Below, in pieces: positions 69 through 27,888 of a DNA stretch of 34,864 nucleotides. Origin of the DNA: a virus (lineage: Duplodnaviria; Caudoviricetes); IMG/VR virus record IMGVR_UViG_3300020045_005593, positions 1 through 34,864 of that record. One strand, 5' to 3'. Both the position numbers and the translations under genes were made by a program. Each line of letters starts with the position of its first letter. Positions within the stretch are counted from its first letter, which is position 1. The notes below the pieces were generated by a model that saw only the letters and a program-made list of their open reading frames with translations, had not been told where the DNA came from and did not search any database.

Positions 69-1729
69 AATGACCCTGCTGTTAAATATTCGTTTGAAAC
101 TCCTGTATTTACAATAGTATGACTTAATTTTTCAGCCATTGTCGTTCCTGTATTATTTATTAAAACAACCGACCCGCCTAAAGCATAAGTCAATGTTACG
201 CCTGTTTGAGTAGAAAAAGAACAATTAAAACCACTCATTAAACCGTTTGGTAAAGTTACAGTACATGATGCCGTTAATAGAATTATTGTTCCGTTATCTG
301 AATTAGCTAACGTTGTATTTGTTGATATTTTACGAACTGTTAATTTAGTCAAGGCCAGTGTTCCGCTATCGTTTGGAATAGAAATTGTTTGATTTGCTGT
401 TAATGTTTCGGTATCTAAAGTATTAGAATAAATTCCGTTATAAAATTTAATAGTTCCAGTATCTAATATCTCTAAATCTGAATCAGTTCTAATATTGTCA
501 CTAAATGTTTTATCCCCTAAAATAGTTTGATTAGTATTTAAATCAACTACATCAACAACATTTGCGGGCGTATAGCCCAAAGCCGCTATAATTGACGCAC
601 TTGAAACAGCGACACCTCCACTTGCGACACCTCCAAATTTTTGCGCTTCAATTATTTTAGAAGTAGTTGTATTTGTCAAATCCGTAGCGTTATTTCGTAA
701 AATAATATAAGCTCTTACTATTCCATTTGCAGCAATATTTGGTTCAACAACAAATGACCTCGTAACTATTGCGGCCTCTGCATCTGCTAAAGTAGCGTAT
801 GTTTGTTGTCCGTATTGTATTCTAGTTTGCCCTGTTTGAAACAATGTAACTGTTTGAATAGTAAAACGATTTGAAGGAACGCTAGTCAATACATTTGCTA
901 AATCATAAACTGATGGATTTAAAACCGTCAAATCTCCGCTTTCAGTACCATTTTGTGTTCTATATCTAAATGTTAAAGCTGTACCTGATGCAATTGATAA
1001 ATTATTAGGGTCTTTCCAATTATTAGCAAAATTTACACCTAATTTAAATATAATTCCCGCGCTTTTATTTAATGATAAATTTGCACCATTTTCAATATAT
1101 TTATTTCCTGATATATTTAATGCTCCAATTGCTTCCATTAAGTCGTGCAATTGATTAGTTCCTGCATTGGTAGGTGCTGAAATGTTATTGACTAAATTAA
1201 TTGTGGTTAAATTGCTGTGTATTACTGCCCCCAAAGCAATTAAATCGCGCCTTTGAATATTTGTAAATGGTGTAGCTTGCATAACTACTGAAGCACTCGA
1301 ATTTATTGCAACGTATGTAATATTAGAAGTAAGTAAATACGTTGGTGTAATTCCTGTAAATGCGGGAAAATTAATTATTTTACAAATAGGATTTTCAGGA
1401 TCGTCAAAATTAGATATAATCCCAATACCCGCCGTAATATTGAATTTTGTAGGATCTGCGTTTGTAGTTACCAAACCGTTTTTTATCAATCCTGTAGATA
1501 GGTAGCTTTTTAACTTTAACGAATCAATAACGGCTAATGAAATCGGTATGTTATTAACAGATGCTTTTCCATAAGTTCCGTCTGATCCTTGTGTTACTAA
1601 AGTATTTGGATTTGTAACTGTTTGAGTAGAATTATTTTTTATTCCGTAATCAAATTCCTGTTCTTGTCCAGTACTTGTTTGTCCATATCCTACAATGGAT
1701 ATTAATAAAAATAAAAGTATTTTTTTCAT
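65..1729 (-). CDS. Tail fibre-like protein with N-terminal signal peptide
   Basis: Probable start MKKILLFLLISIVGYG-Q at 1729. T/N/S/G-rich, with fibre-type motifs IIAALGYTP and NQTILGDKTF and a C-terminal TIILLTASCTVTLP domain. Lies downstream of the tail tip genes. Confidence 0.65.
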   Translation of the reverse strand: MKKILLFLLISIVGYGQTSTGQEQEFDYGIKNNSTQTVTNPNTLVTQGSDGTYGKASVNNIPISLAVIDSLKLKSYLSTGLIKNGLVTTNADPTKFNITAGIGIISNFDDPENPICKIINFPAFTGITPTYLLTSNITYVAINSSASVVMQATPFTNIQRRDLIALGAVIHSNLTTINLVNNISAPTNAGTNQLHDLMEAIGALNISGNKYIENGANLSLNKSAGIIFKLGVNFANNWKDPNNLSIASGTALTFRYRTQNGTESGDLTVLNPSVYDLANVLTSVPSNRFTIQTVTLFQTGQTRIQYGQQTYATLADAEAAIVTRSFVVEPNIAANGIVRAYIILRNNATDLTNTTTSKIIEAQKFGGVASGGVAVSSASIIAALGYTPANVVDVVDLNTNQTILGDKTFSDNIRTDSDLEILDTGTIKFYNGIYSNTLDTETLTANQTISIPNDSGTLALTKLTVRKISTNTTLANSDNGTIILLTASCTVTLPNGLMSGFNCSFSTQTGVTLTYALGGSVVLINNTGTTMAEKLSHTIVNTGVSNEYLTAGSL

Positions 1730-3048: not shown

Positions 3049-3540
3049 TTATTTAATTTTTTGACGTAAATCAGAAATATTAACCGATAATGAAGTGGTT
3101 ATTTTATTAGGTAATAATAAAAATGCTTCTGGGAAATTTTCCTCAACTCTTTTGTAAGTTCTTAATCCAAATAATGCAACTTCAATTTCGGAAAATAGTT
3201 TTTTATACTCTTTTTCTTTGTCTTTAATTTCATTTAATGAATTTTTAATTAATAATGCATCGGTTTCATTTGGCTGAAATGATGATTTAAAAGCAGGAAT
3301 ATGGTTTTTTGTATTTAAATATTGATATTCGAAACCGTTTCCAGATAATTGAAAAGATTGTCTTGTTTCTACATAACTTGGATATTTTTTATAAAAATCC
3401 TTAATTTCTTTAGGAATCGTACCTAAAATAATGTTTTCAAGTTTTTGTTTTAAATCTTCTTTTAATCCTTTTAATTCTAATCCTTGTTTTTGGATTAATT
3501 TTTCGGCCACTTCGGTAGCAATTGCTTTTGTAATGTTCAT
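3049..3540 (-). CDS. Nmad5-like (nucleotide-modification-associated domain 5) protein
   Basis: 163 aa, helical, with C-terminal LRTYKRVEENFPEAFLLLP resembling the Nmad5 signature. Recognised from memory only. Confidence 0.5.
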   Translation of the reverse strand: MNITKAIATEVAEKLIQKQGLELKGLKEDLKQKLENIILGTIPKEIKDFYKKYPSYVETRQSFQLSGNGFEYQYLNTKNHIPAFKSSFQPNETDALLIKNSLNEIKDKEKEYKKLFSEIEVALFGLRTYKRVEENFPEAFLLLPNKITTSLSVNISDLRQKIK

Positions 3541-16423: not shown

Positions 16424-16471
16424 TGTGTGTGTGTATTAATTTTCCCTACTCGTTAGCTTTTCGGTTTCCGC

Positions 16472-17848
16472 TTATTGATTATTAATTGCCATTTCAGTTA
16501 AGCTAGGGTCATCAATTCTTTTTAAATTAGAATTAATATAAATAATAGAAGTTTCCTCGCTTTCTATTGCTTCGTAATTTATAGCCTCTCTTATTTCGTC
16601 TGGAGTTAATGGAGCTTTAACCATCCAATCAATCATTTTTGCCGTATCCGTTTGCATTTCAGGCAATTCACTAATATCAAATTCAATTACGCTTTTTTCA
16701 TACCCTTTGAATTTTTGTATAAATTCAGTATTTAAATATGATGCCAGTAAATCTAAATCAGGCTTAATGTTATCAGTTATAGAACGTTTACGCGCTTCAA
16801 TTACTCCGTCAACTCCAAATCCCGTTCCACTTTTTTCCTCGTTTAATAAGTCAATTGGCCAATTAAGACAGTTACATAAAGTACGTTTATCATTGCTTAA
16901 ATAGTCAAACGGTTTTAATTCATCTGTTGTTAATGAAATACGCGTAAAACCTAATTTAGCAGATGCACCGGCAATATTAGACAATCTACTAGATGTATTG
17001 TCCATATCTAGCAACCGTTGCTTTAAAGAATCTCCCTGTTCTGATGTTAAAGGACTTTGTCCGTCTCCGGCATGAATAAACCCATAAACACCACTATTTT
17101 GCATTGTTTTAACGTTGTTATCGATTCCGCTATTAGAACTATTTATATTCCTAATAGCTGCCATTAATTCACTATATCCGTATAAATGAGATCCGTTTTG
17201 ATTGTAAAATGGATTAGCTCGTTTAATATGAATTATACTATCTACATTGAACTTAATAAACTGATTTCCTTGTTCTAGTATATAATAATCAATAGGATTT
17301 TCAACACTTAAAGAGCTTGCATTTGATTTTAAAACTATTTGTACCCAATGCGATGGAAGTATATATAATTGCATTGGAACGCCAGCGTTCATTCCGTCTA
17401 ATGGTGACATTTTATATAAATAAACATTTCCACAAACTTTTAGATATAATTTATACAAAAATAAAATATCGTTCCATGTTTGATTGGGATTAGGACGTAA
17501 TAAAGGCATTGGCTGTTCAATATCTTTGTGTGCCTCTTTATTTAATAAATCATATTGTTTTTTCTGTACAAATGTTTTATCAATTGGTAATCTTTTTAAC
17601 TTGTTATAACTATCATCGTCTTTAATTGGTTTAATTATGTAAGGAACTGCAGTTGTTTTACTTGCCATTTGATTAACAATAGAGTTTACGTCTGGATTTT
17701 CCCCATAACCTTTAACCAAAAGAGTTTCTAAAGTGCTGTTATATGTTGTAGTTATGCCGCCTACTTGTCGATATAGTGCCTCGTTAAAGTAATTCTTATT
17801 TGGATTTAAAAAAGCATCCAACGCTAAACGGAATCTATTTACTGCCAT
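16472..17848 (-). CDS. Portal protein, HK97 family
   Basis: LLRPNPNQT, GNVYLY, LYILPSHWV, IIHIK, LYGYS, LTPDEIRE. Confidence 0.93.
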   Translation of the reverse strand: MAVNRFRLALDAFLNPNKNYFNEALYRQVGGITTTYNSTLETLLVKGYGENPDVNSIVNQMASKTTAVPYIIKPIKDDDSYNKLKRLPIDKTFVQKKQYDLLNKEAHKDIEQPMPLLRPNPNQTWNDILFLYKLYLKVCGNVYLYKMSPLDGMNAGVPMQLYILPSHWVQIVLKSNASSLSVENPIDYYILEQGNQFIKFNVDSIIHIKRANPFYNQNGSHLYGYSELMAAIRNINSSNSGIDNNVKTMQNSGVYGFIHAGDGQSPLTSEQGDSLKQRLLDMDNTSSRLSNIAGASAKLGFTRISLTTDELKPFDYLSNDKRTLCNCLNWPIDLLNEEKSGTGFGVDGVIEARKRSITDNIKPDLDLLASYLNTEFIQKFKGYEKSVIEFDISELPEMQTDTAKMIDWMVKAPLTPDEIREAINYEAIESEETSIIYINSNLKRIDDPSLTEMAINNQ

Positions 17849-17884: not shown

Positions 17885-19183
17885 TTAGAAAGTGAAAAAT
17901 TTAGGCGCTAATTCAAAATACATCCTAAAAGCCAAAGCATCTGAATAATCTGGAGACCTACCTATAAACTCTTTTACTTTCTCTTTTGGAACTATTCTAA
18001 GTTTACCGTCTTGATCTATTTTATCACGTTTAACTTGTTCTAATTCCTTTATAACGTCATCTTGAACCGTGCAGTCAGGACAATTTATATATACTTCATT
18101 ATTTTGTATTTTAGCGGCTAATTTATAATAACATTGCGTTTTAAGATTTTGATATTCAACTATAACATTTTCTTCTTTTAATGCTCGTGAATTATTTACA
18201 AAACCTTTACATTTTAAAATATCAATTACACCGCCCCCAACACCGTCCTCATCTGCAATAATATTGCTATTTGGCACCTTCCATTTTGTTGCTAAGCCTC
18301 GTATCGCTTCAGCCGTTTCGGTAACTGAACTTTTAGACAATGAAAATATTTCAACTACCCTAAATCCAGACCATACGCAAATAACCATTTTATCACTACC
18401 ATAACGCGCTATATCTGCACTAATATACATTTGTCCTGCTTCGACAAAATCATTCGTAAAACAGTTATTTATTTTATCGTAATCAATAAGCTTTGCGGGA
18501 TCGTTGTCATACTCCCAATTTCCATAATAAAGACGTTGTTTGCTATTTTCATCTAATGCTAATAATGATTCTAAATAAGATGGTGGTAAATTAGGATTAT
18601 CAGTAGGTAATGACTGAATAAATTTTTTAGTATCACTTATAGTTCCATTTGAGTTTGGAATATAAAACTTTGAATAAGTCCAGTTTTTAGCCGGGTTACA
18701 GCTACCTAATATTTTAGGAATAAGGTTAAATTCATTCAATTTATAACGAATACGTGACGTTACAATTTGCCATGCTTTATAACTTATTTGATTGCACTCA
18801 TCTATAAACGCCCCTGTAATCTCTAACGATCCTAAGCTGTCAAAATTAGGGTCAGCAGGATATGAATATAAATCTTTAAGTAAAATTTCGCTGCCATTAT
18901 TCCAATAGATAACTCCATTTTGTCCATTAAAAGTAAATTGATCTGTTATCTTGAGCTGTGAGGCTAAATCAAAGAAAGTGTTTAAAGTGGTTTCTTTGAG
19001 TGTTTTTAGCTTTGCCCTTCCCATTAACCAACGAGTACCGGGATAGTTTTGACATTGTTCGATTAACCATAAAACACCTAATGCAGACTTACCACCTCCA
19101 GCAGCTCCACCGTAAAGAATTTCTTTGGTTGTGCTGTCTTTTAGATAATAAACAGCGTGTTCTTGTTTAGGTATTAGTTTCAT
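17885..19183 (-). CDS. terL: Terminase large subunit
   Basis: Walker A YGGAAGGGKS, Walker B AFIDE, CNP coupling motif, nuclease motifs ADIARYGSD and SPDYSDA. Confidence 0.95.
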   Translation of the reverse strand: MKLIPKQEHAVYYLKDSTTKEILYGGAAGGGKSALGVLWLIEQCQNYPGTRWLMGRAKLKTLKETTLNTFFDLASQLKITDQFTFNGQNGVIYWNNGSEILLKDLYSYPADPNFDSLGSLEITGAFIDECNQISYKAWQIVTSRIRYKLNEFNLIPKILGSCNPAKNWTYSKFYIPNSNGTISDTKKFIQSLPTDNPNLPPSYLESLLALDENSKQRLYYGNWEYDNDPAKLIDYDKINNCFTNDFVEAGQMYISADIARYGSDKMVICVWSGFRVVEIFSLSKSSVTETAEAIRGLATKWKVPNSNIIADEDGVGGGVIDILKCKGFVNNSRALKEENVIVEYQNLKTQCYYKLAAKIQNNEVYINCPDCTVQDDVIKELEQVKRDKIDQDGKLRIVPKEKVKEFIGRSPDYSDALAFRMYFELAPKFFTF

Positions 19184-19595
19184 TTGGATTTATTCCTGTT
19201 CCTAACGAAATAATTGTGGATTTTATTTCGCCTGAATGTTCAGTTTGAATTTTGTCACCGTATTTTTTAGGGTTTAGTTTAGATAACTCCCATTTTTTAG
19301 AATCTATTTTTAACCTTTGTAATTGTACCCAAGCAGAATCAATGCGTCCTGTTTCCGGATCTCTTTGTGGTTCTTCTAAATAATCTTTTTCAATACTATC
19401 AAACTTTAATTCAGTTCTTTCGTTAGTTGCTCGCGCGTATTGTTTTGATTTTTCTTCATCTTCTTCTATCCAAATAAAGAAAGTACTTGAAGATAATTTT
19501 ACTTCTTTTAAAGCATAACGCAAAGACTTACCACTTTCGATTATATCAAAAACGGTATTAAATATAGTTTCTTTATCTTCTTGTGAATATGCCAT
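19167..19595 (-). CDS. terS: Terminase small subunit
   Basis: N-terminal HTH (GKSLR...STFFIW), RLKIDSKKWELSKLNPKKYGDK; overlaps terL. Confidence 0.92.
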   Translation of the reverse strand: MAYSQEDKETIFNTVFDIIESGKSLRYALKEVKLSSSTFFIWIEEDEEKSKQYARATNERTELKFDSIEKDYLEEPQRDPETGRIDSAWVQLQRLKIDSKKWELSKLNPKKYGDKIQTEHSGEIKSTIISLGTGINPNETNT

Positions 19596-19613
19596 ATTCT
19601 ATATAAAAAATTG

Positions 19614-19685
19614 TGGAGAATAAAGGAATCGAACCTTTGACCTCTGCCACCTTAGGCAGCGCACCACCGACTGTGCTAATTCCCC
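19614..19685 (-). tRNA. tRNA-Ala-like RNA with non-canonical 6-nt anticodon loop
   Basis: GGGGAAT TA GCAC AGTCGGTG GTGC G CTGCC TAAGGT GGCAG AGGTC AAAGG TTCGATT CCTTT ATTCTCC A. All four stems pair; G3:U70 and A73 present; followed by CAA, not CCA. Confidence 0.8.
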
Positions 19686-19689
19686 TTTT

Positions 19690-19727
19690 AAAAAACCGCT
19701 TCTAACTCTATATCCGAAAGAAGCGGT
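19690..19727 (-). terminator. Terminator-like hairpin upstream of the tRNA-like gene and terS
   Basis: ACCGCTTCT...AGAAGCGGT followed by a U tract on the minus strand. Confidence 0.6.
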
Positions 19728-19760
19728 AAAAATTATATTAATTATGAAATGTAAAGATAA

Positions 19761-20117
19761 TCATTTTATTTGTAATTCCTCACCTGTTAATGCAAAATAT
19801 AAATTTTGTAGTTGGTGGACGTGTTTAATTATTCTTCCATTTTTATCACACATAAATAAATCGTTGCATTTCCAAATTAAATGACCTGGTATTGCATAGT
19901 GATTTTCTGTTATTAAATCATACCCAAACTTCAATAACCATTCTTCTGTCAGTGGAATTTGTTTTGGAGAATGTTTTTCTGTTAATTTTCTTTCAAATCC
20001 TATACTATTTGTAAAATATCCAAGTTCTATATTTTCATTCCTTTTTATTTCCAAAACAATTACTATTTGTCCGTAATAATCTAAAATATTGCCCTGTCTT
20101 AGTTCTGTGCTTTTCAT
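19761..20117 (-). CDS. Hypothetical phage protein (ELR.GN...IPLTEEWL...VHQLQNLYFALTGEEL type)
   Basis: 118-aa ORF with a motif pattern recurrent in Bacteroidota phages, as recalled. Confidence 0.75.
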   Translation of the reverse strand: MKSTELRQGNILDYYGQIVIVLEIKRNENIELGYFTNSIGFERKLTEKHSPKQIPLTEEWLLKFGYDLITENHYAIPGHLIWKCNDLFMCDKNGRIIKHVHQLQNLYFALTGEELQIK

Positions 20118-25067: not shown

Positions 25068-25925
25068 TTAAATTCCACAATATCCAGAATCGCATTCGTT
25101 AAAATCTTCTAACGCAAATTCATATTGTAAATTCCATTTTTGTATTTTTGAATACTCCGTGTCTTGTCTCCAAGTATTTCCTTTCATAACTTTTGCCTGA
25201 TTTTCTTTATCTATAAACCATTGTAATTTTTCCGGGTGTAATTCCATCATTTTTCTTAATAAATGCGGTTCTTTATGCATACACCCCACACAGTTATTCA
25301 TCCATGCAAATTGAACTGGTTTATATTTCCAAAATTCTTCAATGGAATCTTTATAAATACCGTCTTCTATTAATGGGTAAAATGGTTTTTGATATTCAAA
25401 CTCTTTCCACTTATTTCTTCCGTTTGAAGTTTTTCCAACTATTCCCTTATGGGTTAAATATCCAAACGGATTTAAACGATTATTTGTATTTACAGCTCTT
25501 CGTGTTTCATTTGCTCTAAAACCAAAACGACACTCCCATGGGTCAATATTTAATGAATGCCAATATTTAAATAACGGATCAACTTTCATTTCTTGTGTGC
25601 AAAAACGCCTCATTGGTTGTGGTAAATTCGGTATTCCTGTTTTTCTATCTATTGTTTCCTCAAATGTTTTTCCAGTTACCCATTTTATTTTTCTTCCGGT
25701 AAATTGCTCTAAATCAAAAATAGTTTTAATAATGACATTGTCTTCTAACGTTCCTATAAATTCAATGCCTAATTCGTCTGAAACCATCTGACGTAATTTT
25801 TTATCAGGAAACAAACATTTAATTTCATTTGTTCTTACTAATGCAAACGCTCGATAATCACTAGGGTAATTAGCTTCTAAATAAGCGGAAGTTTTTCCGC
25901 CCGATATGCTGTTAAATGTTTTCAT
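25068..25925 (-). CDS. PAPS-reductase-like PP-loop protein, copy 1
   Basis: SISGGKTS, RFCT..MKVDP, GFRANETRR, NNCVGC, C-terminal CDSGYCG. Likely start at 25925. Confidence 0.8.
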   Translation of the reverse strand: MKTFNSISGGKTSAYLEANYPSDYRAFALVRTNEIKCLFPDKKLRQMVSDELGIEFIGTLEDNVIIKTIFDLEQFTGRKIKWVTGKTFEETIDRKTGIPNLPQPMRRFCTQEMKVDPLFKYWHSLNIDPWECRFGFRANETRRAVNTNNRLNPFGYLTHKGIVGKTSNGRNKWKEFEYQKPFYPLIEDGIYKDSIEEFWKYKPVQFAWMNNCVGCMHKEPHLLRKMMELHPEKLQWFIDKENQAKVMKGNTWRQDTEYSKIQKWNLQYEFALEDFNECDSGYCGI

Positions 25926-25926
25926 A

Positions 25927-26124
25927 TTAAAATTTTTTTTCTTCTTCACATTCATTGCCCCAATTTTCAGCAGAACAAGGATAAATAGATTTGCACACGT
26001 TACAATAAAATGTAAAGCATTCTGGATACGTTTCCTTTAAATACTTTTCTGTATTTTCATTAATTTTAGCCATTTCTCTAATTTCTTTATGGCTAATTTT
26101 TACTGTAAAATCATTTTTGTCCAT
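25927..26124 (-). CDS. Small Cys-rich protein
   Basis: 65 aa containing CNVC..YPC. Confidence 0.5.
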   Translation of the reverse strand: MDKNDFTVKISHKEIREMAKINENTEKYLKETYPECFTFYCNVCKSIYPCSAENWGNECEEEKKF

Positions 26125-27110: not shown

Positions 27111-27857
27111 TTATTTAGTTTCGCAAAATATTCCGCAGTCGTAACTTTTAATCTTACCTCCTTTATCTGTTATCTTTAGCTCATCTAAAAAAATTCTTTT
27201 TCCTTTTACTTTTACCAATTTACATCCGATTCTCTTACTTTGTTCAGAACGTTGTTCAAATACATCTGGAAAAGTTTTACGAACTAAATTCCAATAAGTA
27301 GGCGACTGGCTTTTAACACATCCTATGCAATTTGCATTAGGAAATCCTAATTCATAAATTAACGGTCTTTTTATTCCGGCATCTGATAAAATATTAAAAC
27401 AATCTATTTTAGTTAATTTTTCATCAATTAAAAGGCCTATAACGTTTCCTCTTTCAAATTTAACGAATCTATCATATCTATTTTGTTCTTCTACAGTAAA
27501 GCCTAAAACGTGAAAATCAATTTTATTATTTTTTTCAAATTCGTAACGAGCTTGTTTTTTTAAAAACTTCGTACAGGGTGCTCCTGCAACTCCAGACACA
27601 TACTTTCTTTTATCGAAAACTTCAACTATTGAAGCATTAGGAAATTCTAAGCACTTTGCTTCTATTATTTCAATACCCACCCATTTAGAAATATCATTTT
27701 TAAAACGAATATTATCTTCGTGCTCTTCTTTTACTGGGTTGTTTATAGCTAAAATATTATGCGTATTTCCATAAATTTCAACTGTTTTTTTTAATGCAAT
27801 TGCCGAGGCAACTCCACAACTAAACCAAACCGCTATTGTTTTTTTATTGTTTTTCAT
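27111..27857 (-). CDS. PAPS-reductase-like PP-loop protein, copy 2
   Basis: WFSCGVASA, EHEDN.RF, GAPCT..LKK, GFT.EE..R, GFPNANCIGCVK, DCGIFC. Likely start at 27857. Confidence 0.8.
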   Translation of the reverse strand: MKNNKKTIAVWFSCGVASAIALKKTVEIYGNTHNILAINNPVKEEHEDNIRFKNDISKWVGIEIIEAKCLEFPNASIVEVFDKRKYVSGVAGAPCTKFLKKQARYEFEKNNKIDFHVLGFTVEEQNRYDRFVKFERGNVIGLLIDEKLTKIDCFNILSDAGIKRPLIYELGFPNANCIGCVKSQSPTYWNLVRKTFPDVFEQRSEQSKRIGCKLVKVKGKRIFLDELKITDKGGKIKSYDCGIFCETK

Positions 27858-27888
27858 AATTTCTATTTTTTTAGTGATTTTCAATATT

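Follow-up and report, generated by a model that had tools for sequence, protein, structure and literature searches.

The window (the whole 34,864-nt stretch of DNA analyzed here) is an entire linear virus record, 89% complete and with a G+C content of 31%. Its siphophage-type terminase, portal, head, and tail genes all lie on the minus strand, relatives of its large terminase subunit (TerL) occur in genomes of Flavobacterium and other Bacteroidota (39 to 64% identity), and we infer that its host is Flavobacterium-like. The only tRNA called in the window, hereafter the element, lies upstream of the terminase genes, in a region with the following features, given from high to low coordinates:

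19761..20117, minus strand: open reading frame (ORF) of unassigned function (phrog_10066), upstream of the element and stopping just short of the promoter-like site
19752..19759, minus strand: predicted promoter, a Bacteroidota sigmaA -7 box-like site (7 of 8 positions of TAnnTTTG)
19728..19748, minus strand: conserved leader starting with CAUAAUU at the predicted transcription start
19690..19727, minus strand: intrinsic-terminator-like 9-bp hairpin plus U tract (z -3.1; 8 stretches)
19614..19685, minus strand: the element, a tRNA-Ala-derived tRNA mimic of 72 nt from G1 to discriminator A73 (ARAGORN, Rfam, fold, contigs)
19644..19659, minus strand: its short anticodon arm, a 5-bp stem with a 6-nt loop (loop at 19649-19654; sequence, fold, contigs)
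19622..19638, minus strand: its T arm, with pairs 49-51 A-U throughout
19611..19613, minus strand: CAA trailer without an encoded CCA, the same as in host tRNA-Ala genes
19167..19595, minus strand: terminase small subunit gene terS (phrog_1482, E 7.7e-31; PF20901)
17885..19183, minus strand: terminase large subunit gene terL, after which the portal, head, and tail genes come next

Elsewhere in the window, Rfam reported a DUF805b match at 16443-16474 (minus strand; 37.3 bits versus a cut-off of 35.6), flanked by the portal gene and an ORF of 96 aa with unassigned function. Two PAPS-reductase-like genes (phrog_424) lie at 25068-25955 and 27111-27884 on the minus strand, and a weak Nmad5 match at 3049-3540; together they possibly constitute a DNA-modification module, and these genes were absent from the element-carrying records with which the window was compared.

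Scoring with ARAGORN and Infernal-type models, as the first-pass annotation of this sequence had proposed, returned a tRNA-??? call at 19613-19685 and an Rfam tRNA match (RF00005; 55.7 bits, cut-off 29, E 1.4e-9), and no tmRNA family in Rfam matched the element; a low-threshold ARAGORN scan yielded mainly noise. The minimum free energy (MFE) and centroid structures are identical, i.e., a full 7/4/5/5 cloverleaf (-24.3 kcal/mol, z -2.2) with a 7-bp acceptor stem, a 4-bp D stem, a 5-bp anticodon stem closed by the loop UAAGGU, a 5-bp T stem, and a variable region of 5 nt. The acceptor reads G1-C72, G2-C71, G3·U70, G4-C69, and A73, followed by CAA, and its stem is identical to that of some host tRNA-Ala copies. 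Both the GG of the D loop and the T-loop consensus are present, and position 21, usually A, is G. All 21 of the 21 base pairs are intact even though the element is only 74 to 80% similar to host tRNA-Ala, from which it differs by double changes in three stems. The anticodon arm is one base shorter than the canonical form, and the 7-nt loop with NGC that typifies tRNA-Ala is replaced by a 6-nt loop lacking NGC. The element is thereby confirmed as a real, maintained tRNA-Ala mimic with the structure described earlier, including its fully paired stems, its 6-nt loop without an Ala anticodon, the G3·U70 pair with A73, and its derivation from tRNA-Ala, and it is likely unable to decode, consistent with the loss of normal decoding that had been proposed. 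Two other details did not stand as proposed. The D stem GCAC/GUGC had been viewed as compensatory, but by hand count about 40 of the 119 loci carrying that stem are normal phage tRNA-Ala genes. Likewise, the 3' ACAA end is present but not unusual, since Flavobacterium tRNA-Ala genes are also seen without CCA.

As a 1-nt deletion error had been raised as a potential origin of the short loop, contigs from public sequencing runs were examined. Contigs cross the loop in at least 4 of 8 runs from 3 studies, each time with 0 gaps, thereby ruling out assembly error as the cause of the 6-nt loop. They differ from the window at 0 (run X2), 5 (X3), 1 (X4), and 5 (X13) positions, and one contig equals the window over 126 nt; run X5 gave no match, X10 and X16 gave T-arm or leader pieces only, and no loop-spanning piece was among the matches listed for X1. 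In one contig (depth 8; 2 of its 5 differences displayed), G26·A44 is replaced by A26·G44. Positions 26 and 44 form a purine-purine contact in tRNA, and the paired G26A and A44G changes keep that contact. Another contig carries C27U (depth 3.7, weak), by which the pair is retained as a wobble. In contig X4-29, the element precedes a different downstream ORF from that in the window.

In collections from which near-identical records may be missing, exact copies of the element were found neither among 119 loci matching its D arm nor among 119 metagenome loci matching a 16-mer of its anticodon arm, where a loose T-loop filter retained 2 loci, both distinct from the element; its exact T-arm pattern had 0 matches in viral contigs. 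Annotated phages gave 17 distant matches (74 to 77%), 16 of them annotated as tRNA-Ala. With up to 2 mismatches, the D arm matched 0 of 401 Flavobacteriaceae-level genomes; at the genus level it matched 159 of 401 genomes, and the best 30 of those loci comprised 29 host tRNA-Ala genes and 1 different mimic array (L540). The leader motif had 0 matches in genome contigs. Broader T-arm patterns returned mainly ordinary tRNA and tmRNA ends and served as leads only.

Upstream of the element, the -7 box-like site accords with the TAnnTTTG consensus and its -12 to -5 position as given in passages of PMC9723704, and its spacing is conserved in relatives; a sigma-70 promoter scan is ill-suited to this host group. 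The terminator-like hairpin is conserved in 8 stretches (7 other contigs, one duplicate removed), its U tract ends 4 nt before G1 of the element, and it was missed by a simple terminator scan with a loop limit of 8 nt. As no promoter-like site was found between the terminator and terS in the window, the element would be expressed by read-through. terS is indeed close downstream, with its ATG start codon 18 nt past A73 rather than about 19 nt as first stated. This leader was found in 8 viral stretches. One contig carries an Ala-type mimic other than the element, 4 stretches go straight on to an ORF, and 3 have a second promoter-like site ahead of terS; in L011, L412, and L414 the same terminator leads directly, with no element, to terS or a terS-like gene. 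Collection of loci upstream of terS gave a mixed outcome: the structure is kept in some homologues, and presence is patchy, with Ala-type mimics in 2 of the 80 TerL-relative loci (L562, L588; upstream sequence of 200 nt or more is available for 68 of the 80) and, in the same slot, non-Ala mimics matching the T arm in 3 of the 80 (L577, L601, L608). terS is leaderless after a -7 box in 18 of 68 loci. Judged by these comparisons, the slot between the promoter-terminator leader and terS is optional.

The -7 box, CAUAAUU leader, and terminator form a conserved cassette that also lies ahead of terS in L412-L419, L563, L566, L587, and L032-L039, and a -7-like octamer recurs within the leader. The cassette may represent a promoter-terminator unit for late expression that depends on antitermination or, alternatively, a small RNA whose 5' end is complementary to A-rich sequence around start codons. 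The promoter or mimic before terS gives way to a different conserved leader, with two hairpins, in a large subgroup from freshwater (L612-L637).

A pattern combining the T arm with an Ala-like 3' end identified 118 loci in 30 of the 64 parts of the viral collection (120 matches, 82 distinct sequences), and by estimate one narrow pattern would recur in about 260 viral stretches. A script sorted the 82 sequences into 31 canonical tRNA-Ala, 3 other canonical, 41 non-canonical, and 7 unparsed; after hand curation (misparsed L735, L651, L754, L705, L692, and L640 removed; unparsed L746 added), 36 of the 82 were non-canonical, i.e., 18 with G3·U70 and 18 with A3-U70, the Ala share being biased since the pattern fixed the 3' acceptor strand. 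Body length ranges from 58 to 177 nt; the acceptor, D, and T arms are constant, and the anticodon region is absent, collapsed, or enlarged; no anticodon is common to the set members, and Rfam searches on 20 loci of the set gave only tRNA matches, where any. In a second phage group, which has nearly no structural protein clusters in common with the window, many members are flanked by a terS-like gene and terL. Both 3·70 states occur within one lineage (L642 versus L646, L698, and L699). Among 22 elements selected for G3, 64 of the 66 T-stem cells left free by the search pattern are paired, by several kinds of base pair, versus a mean of 47.7 and a maximum of 57 in 5000 shuffles (kinship uncorrected). 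L562 and L588 (2 of the 80 TerL relatives) and L755 (1 of 3 terS-like-query loci) were found independently of the RNA pattern, and all three retain G1-C72, G2-C71, G3·U70, and A73; in L562, these identity marks are retained yet pairs 4-7 differ. Across 49 whole records, RF00005 matched 7: 2 with Ala-type tRNAs, 2 with Gly-type tRNAs, 1 with a pair of other mimics, 1 with a Leu-type mimic, and 1 with a five-tRNA array.

Twelve of the 18 A3-U70 elements have a D arm that we take to be of the Leu type. Those with A3-U70, A73, this D arm, and long inserts (94-177 nt) include L199, L649, L653, L656, L657, L669, L676, L691, L714, L727, and L753; they sit in phages of about 35 to 47% G+C. Leucyl-tRNA synthetase also mostly ignores the anticodon.

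A 52-nt insert in the anticodon position is common to L588:2518-2622 and L665:1504-1608 (minus strand), with 2 differences, in different terS neighborhoods. No motif is shared by the inserts at large: the best 4-mer occurs in 10 of 22, a value matched by 59% of shuffles, and UAAG, considered as a shared motif of the variable region, was rejected on the same grounds (10 of 22, not above the best 4-mer of shuffles). These inserts bear on the explanation that the tRNA is a natural scaffold that stabilizes a cargo RNA placed at the anticodon or the D loop, with a nearly empty version in the window. The range of body lengths between fixed ends and the insert common to L588 and L665 are in keeping with it. 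Nevertheless, the missing common motif and the retention of empty versions, such as that of the window, make it very improbable.

A functionless relic, left by the decay of an ordinary late tRNA-Ala gene, would account for the patchy occurrence at TerL-relative loci, for G21 in place of A21, for the mismatches in the acceptor and T stems of L562, and for the poor folds of L588 (z -0.84) and L696 (z 0.16). In contrast, the element of the window has no broken pair and shows double changes relative to the host in three stems; the 26-44 swap, the same short loop in several phages, and the T-stem pairing across the set likewise speak for maintenance of structure, as had been proposed. We regard a relic as improbable.

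More plausible, if still doubtful, and the chief rival of the decoy reading given below, is a cut-here signal acting in cis, in which RNase P and a 3' nuclease would excise the tRNA shape and thereby punctuate a read-through late transcript; cleavage would determine where the terS or downstream mRNA begins and how stable it is, and the Ala marks would merely be inherited. tRNA-processing enzymes read the very parts that are conserved in these mimics, and non-Ala acceptors occupy the same slot. In four IMG/VR cases of the window's phage group, the element lies 12 to 30 nt ahead of terS, and a U tract precedes 13 of 16 scored non-canonical elements (mostly one related group) versus 4 of 31 canonical ones, a linkage that fits a cis role just as well as a decoy (see below). 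However, closeness to an ORF is not enriched (within 30 nt for 4 of 18 non-canonical elements versus 14 of 31 canonical tRNA-Ala), so that spacing disfavors the processing signal for terS that had been suggested; relatives L011, L412, and L414 make terS from the same leader without any element; L588 and L696 have their own promoter-like site right before the element; and what follows it in the second phage group is not an ORF but other RNAs.

Whether the element could still decode was assessed from the phage genes themselves. A working decoder would use a register with a 4-bp stem and an 8-nt loop and would either place Ala at CUU or CCU or induce frameshifts; opening the top pair yields C32, U33, and AAGG, the register that ARAGORN reported. 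Yet the arm is one base short in both registers, the 6-nt form is both MFE and centroid, and the set members share no anticodon. Moreover, in conserved columns of 30 window genes, CUU corresponded to Leu in 14 of 15 cases and CCU to Pro in 18 of 19, with Ala at 0 of 15 and 0 of 19, respectively. A recoding or mistranslating tRNA, one of the roles first put forward, was thus rejected because the phage genes show no matching reassignment, and we consider a working decoder of any kind extremely unlikely.

We then computed EF-Tu binding from values in Table 2 of PMC3239215. The predicted binding of the element is -9.5 kcal/mol versus -10.1 for most host tRNA-Ala (range -10.0 to -10.3), and means were -9.1 for the G3 set (17 of 18 scored) and -10.15 for canonical tRNA-Ala (29 of 31); 9 set members were at -8.7, and 9 of the 17 scored share one T stem. 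Within this model, the weak prediction would show release from translation and not active avoidance, and relaxed selection explains the value equally well, as -9.5 is also the mean over all measured pair combinations.

The same table bears on a further possibility, namely, that the element is a private Ala donor for a tRNA-dependent transferase, comparable to the staphylococcal tRNA-Gly or the Gly-tRNA of Mom. Besides its Ala marks, the element carries A51-U63, the weakest EF-Tu pair measured at that position in the tabulated data of PMC3239215, and related phages pair mom with non-canonical Gly-type tRNAs in 3 of 3 cases. The EF-Tu shift, on the other hand, is 0.5 to 0.8 kcal/mol, under the outlier line of 1.3 kcal/mol from the class mean that passages of that paper use. 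No Mom was found in the window or 10 carrier records by a search that did detect it in 3 of 49 other records, the window (a record 89% complete) and 9 carrier records have no non-structural gene cluster common to all of them, and Mom of phage Mu did not use Ala-tRNA-Ala according to passages of PMC13219725. As no partner enzyme was found here, the donor role named in the first-pass annotation appears quite unlikely.

Mom (PF25680) itself was present in 3 of the 49 TerL-relative records, and all three carry a Gly-type tRNA right after mom:

L761:1501-1572 (G851): Gly-type tRNA by mom
L571, about 2570-2640 (G809): Gly-type tRNA by mom
L762:1501-1571, minus strand (G831): Gly-type tRNA by mom

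These tRNAs have G1-C72, C2-G71, and U73, marks that are presumably Gly-type, and retain UCC in a loop of 8 nt (or of 6 nt with one additional pair); 2 of the 3 have degenerate T loops. RF00005, a search that missed the G809 copy, detected no Gly-type tRNA in the other 46 records, and none lies within 170 nt of mom in Flavobacterium genome L509. The mom-linked tRNAs are likely private glycine donors for Mom, and the Gly-type marks kept in such non-canonical tRNAs suggest that charging can persist while decoding is lost.

The reading that we favor, with somewhat less than even confidence, is that the element is a late RNA, likely alanylated and non-decoding, that serves as a decoy for tRNA-cutting or tRNA-modifying enzymes of the host. 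It would be transcribed late, by read-through of the terminator, and processed by RNase P, 3' maturation, and CCA addition, i.e., the route of the host's CCA-less tRNA-Ala; it would then be alanylated via G3·U70, excluded from decoding, and, in the weakest step, serve during infection as a decoy. G3·U70 suffices to let other tRNA bodies be alanylated according to passages of PMC3239215, and passages of PMC12409363 describe tRNA cleavage and modification as common anti-phage effects. The decoy role was reached by elimination together with the known frequency of tRNA-targeting defenses. Three further observations suggest it: the element retains the surfaces bound by tRNA-directed enzymes while its anticodon region varies freely; its occurrence is patchy, like that of an accessory gene; and it is located where trans-acting phage tRNAs are, its position after a terminator resembling the start of phage tRNA arrays (an ordinary one begins after a terminator in G815) and thus fitting a product that acts in trans. 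Against the decoy stand the 18 of 36 non-canonical elements with A3-U70 and the non-Ala elements in the same slot. The phage counters to tRNA nucleases published in the passages of PMC12409363 are working replacement tRNAs, and the word "decoy" does not occur in those passages. A broader version, which we advance as unlikely, is that Bacteroidota phages share widespread chargeable, non-decoding late tRNA scaffolds, the top half of which would absorb defense enzymes and the anticodon position of which would be an interchangeable slot, holding 0 to about 110 nt and moving between phage groups, the window having a near-empty Ala version.

Several known systems resemble the element in part. Canonical tRNA-Ala of Flavobacterium and Bacteroidota phages is alike in G3·U70, A73, the absence of CCA, the D-loop GG, and the T loop; in contrast, the element has a 6-nt loop without NGC, G21, an all-A-U T-stem base, and a phage late leader. 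The TLD-only tmRNA of mycobacteriophage DS6A is reportedly also a phage RNA that is an Ala acceptor and non-decoding. A TLD-only tmRNA is a tmRNA-type tRNA-like domain without a D stem, whereas the element has a full 4-bp D stem, descends from tRNA-Ala, and has no tmRNA match in Rfam. The non-proteinogenic tRNA-Gly of Staphylococcus, as presented in passages of PMC3239215, likewise has synthetase marks, a T stem with weaker predicted EF-Tu binding, and a normal host copy; the element differs from it in its smaller EF-Tu shift, its broken anticodon loop, and the lack of a detected partner transferase. Relative to the allo-tRNAs, irregular tRNA polycistrons, and Bacillus cereus tRNA-Other of PMC5389517 (in the passages considered), the element is 7/5 and not 8/4 or 9/3, and, unlike an allo-tRNA, it has no long variable arm and sits in a phage packaging leader. 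The T5 tRNAs acting against PARIS, described in passages of PMC12409363, are likewise phage tRNA genes with an altered anticodon arm in a setting of tRNA-targeting defense, but T5-type replacement tRNAs decode and restore translation, which the element is predicted not to do. Canonical tRNA-Ala, allo-tRNA, and TLD-only tmRNA were rejected as its class, each failing its defining test; by analogy, the element may work like other chargeable non-decoding tRNAs.

No account of this mimic set was found in the literature searched. The passages of PMC10690425 report tRNA-like candidates in viruses and do not describe anticodon loss; motifs of the set had no match in 6 supplementary files of that paper, whose 10,006 candidates may include the set. 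The replacement tRNAs by which phages are known to answer tRNA-targeting immunity still decode, so a maintained non-decoding tRNA would be a different strategy, either a decoy or a punctuation of late transcripts. Annotation tools label such genes as undetermined or miss them. The short members are easily made and assayed, and one change of the 3·70 pair separates a charging-dependent role from a structural one.

Two other loci carry unusual tRNA-like arrangements. At L540 (about 1430-1650, minus strand; Flavobacterium genome G382), two D-arm/T-arm units follow one another inside an Ala-type acceptor; this double tRNA-like element is followed by a normal-looking tRNA, and the array lies downstream of a terS-like gene. 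In a provirus, L639:756-1001 (minus strand) matches a permuted tmRNA (RF04321, 61.6 bits) and adjoins tRNA-like genes, including an Ala mimic.
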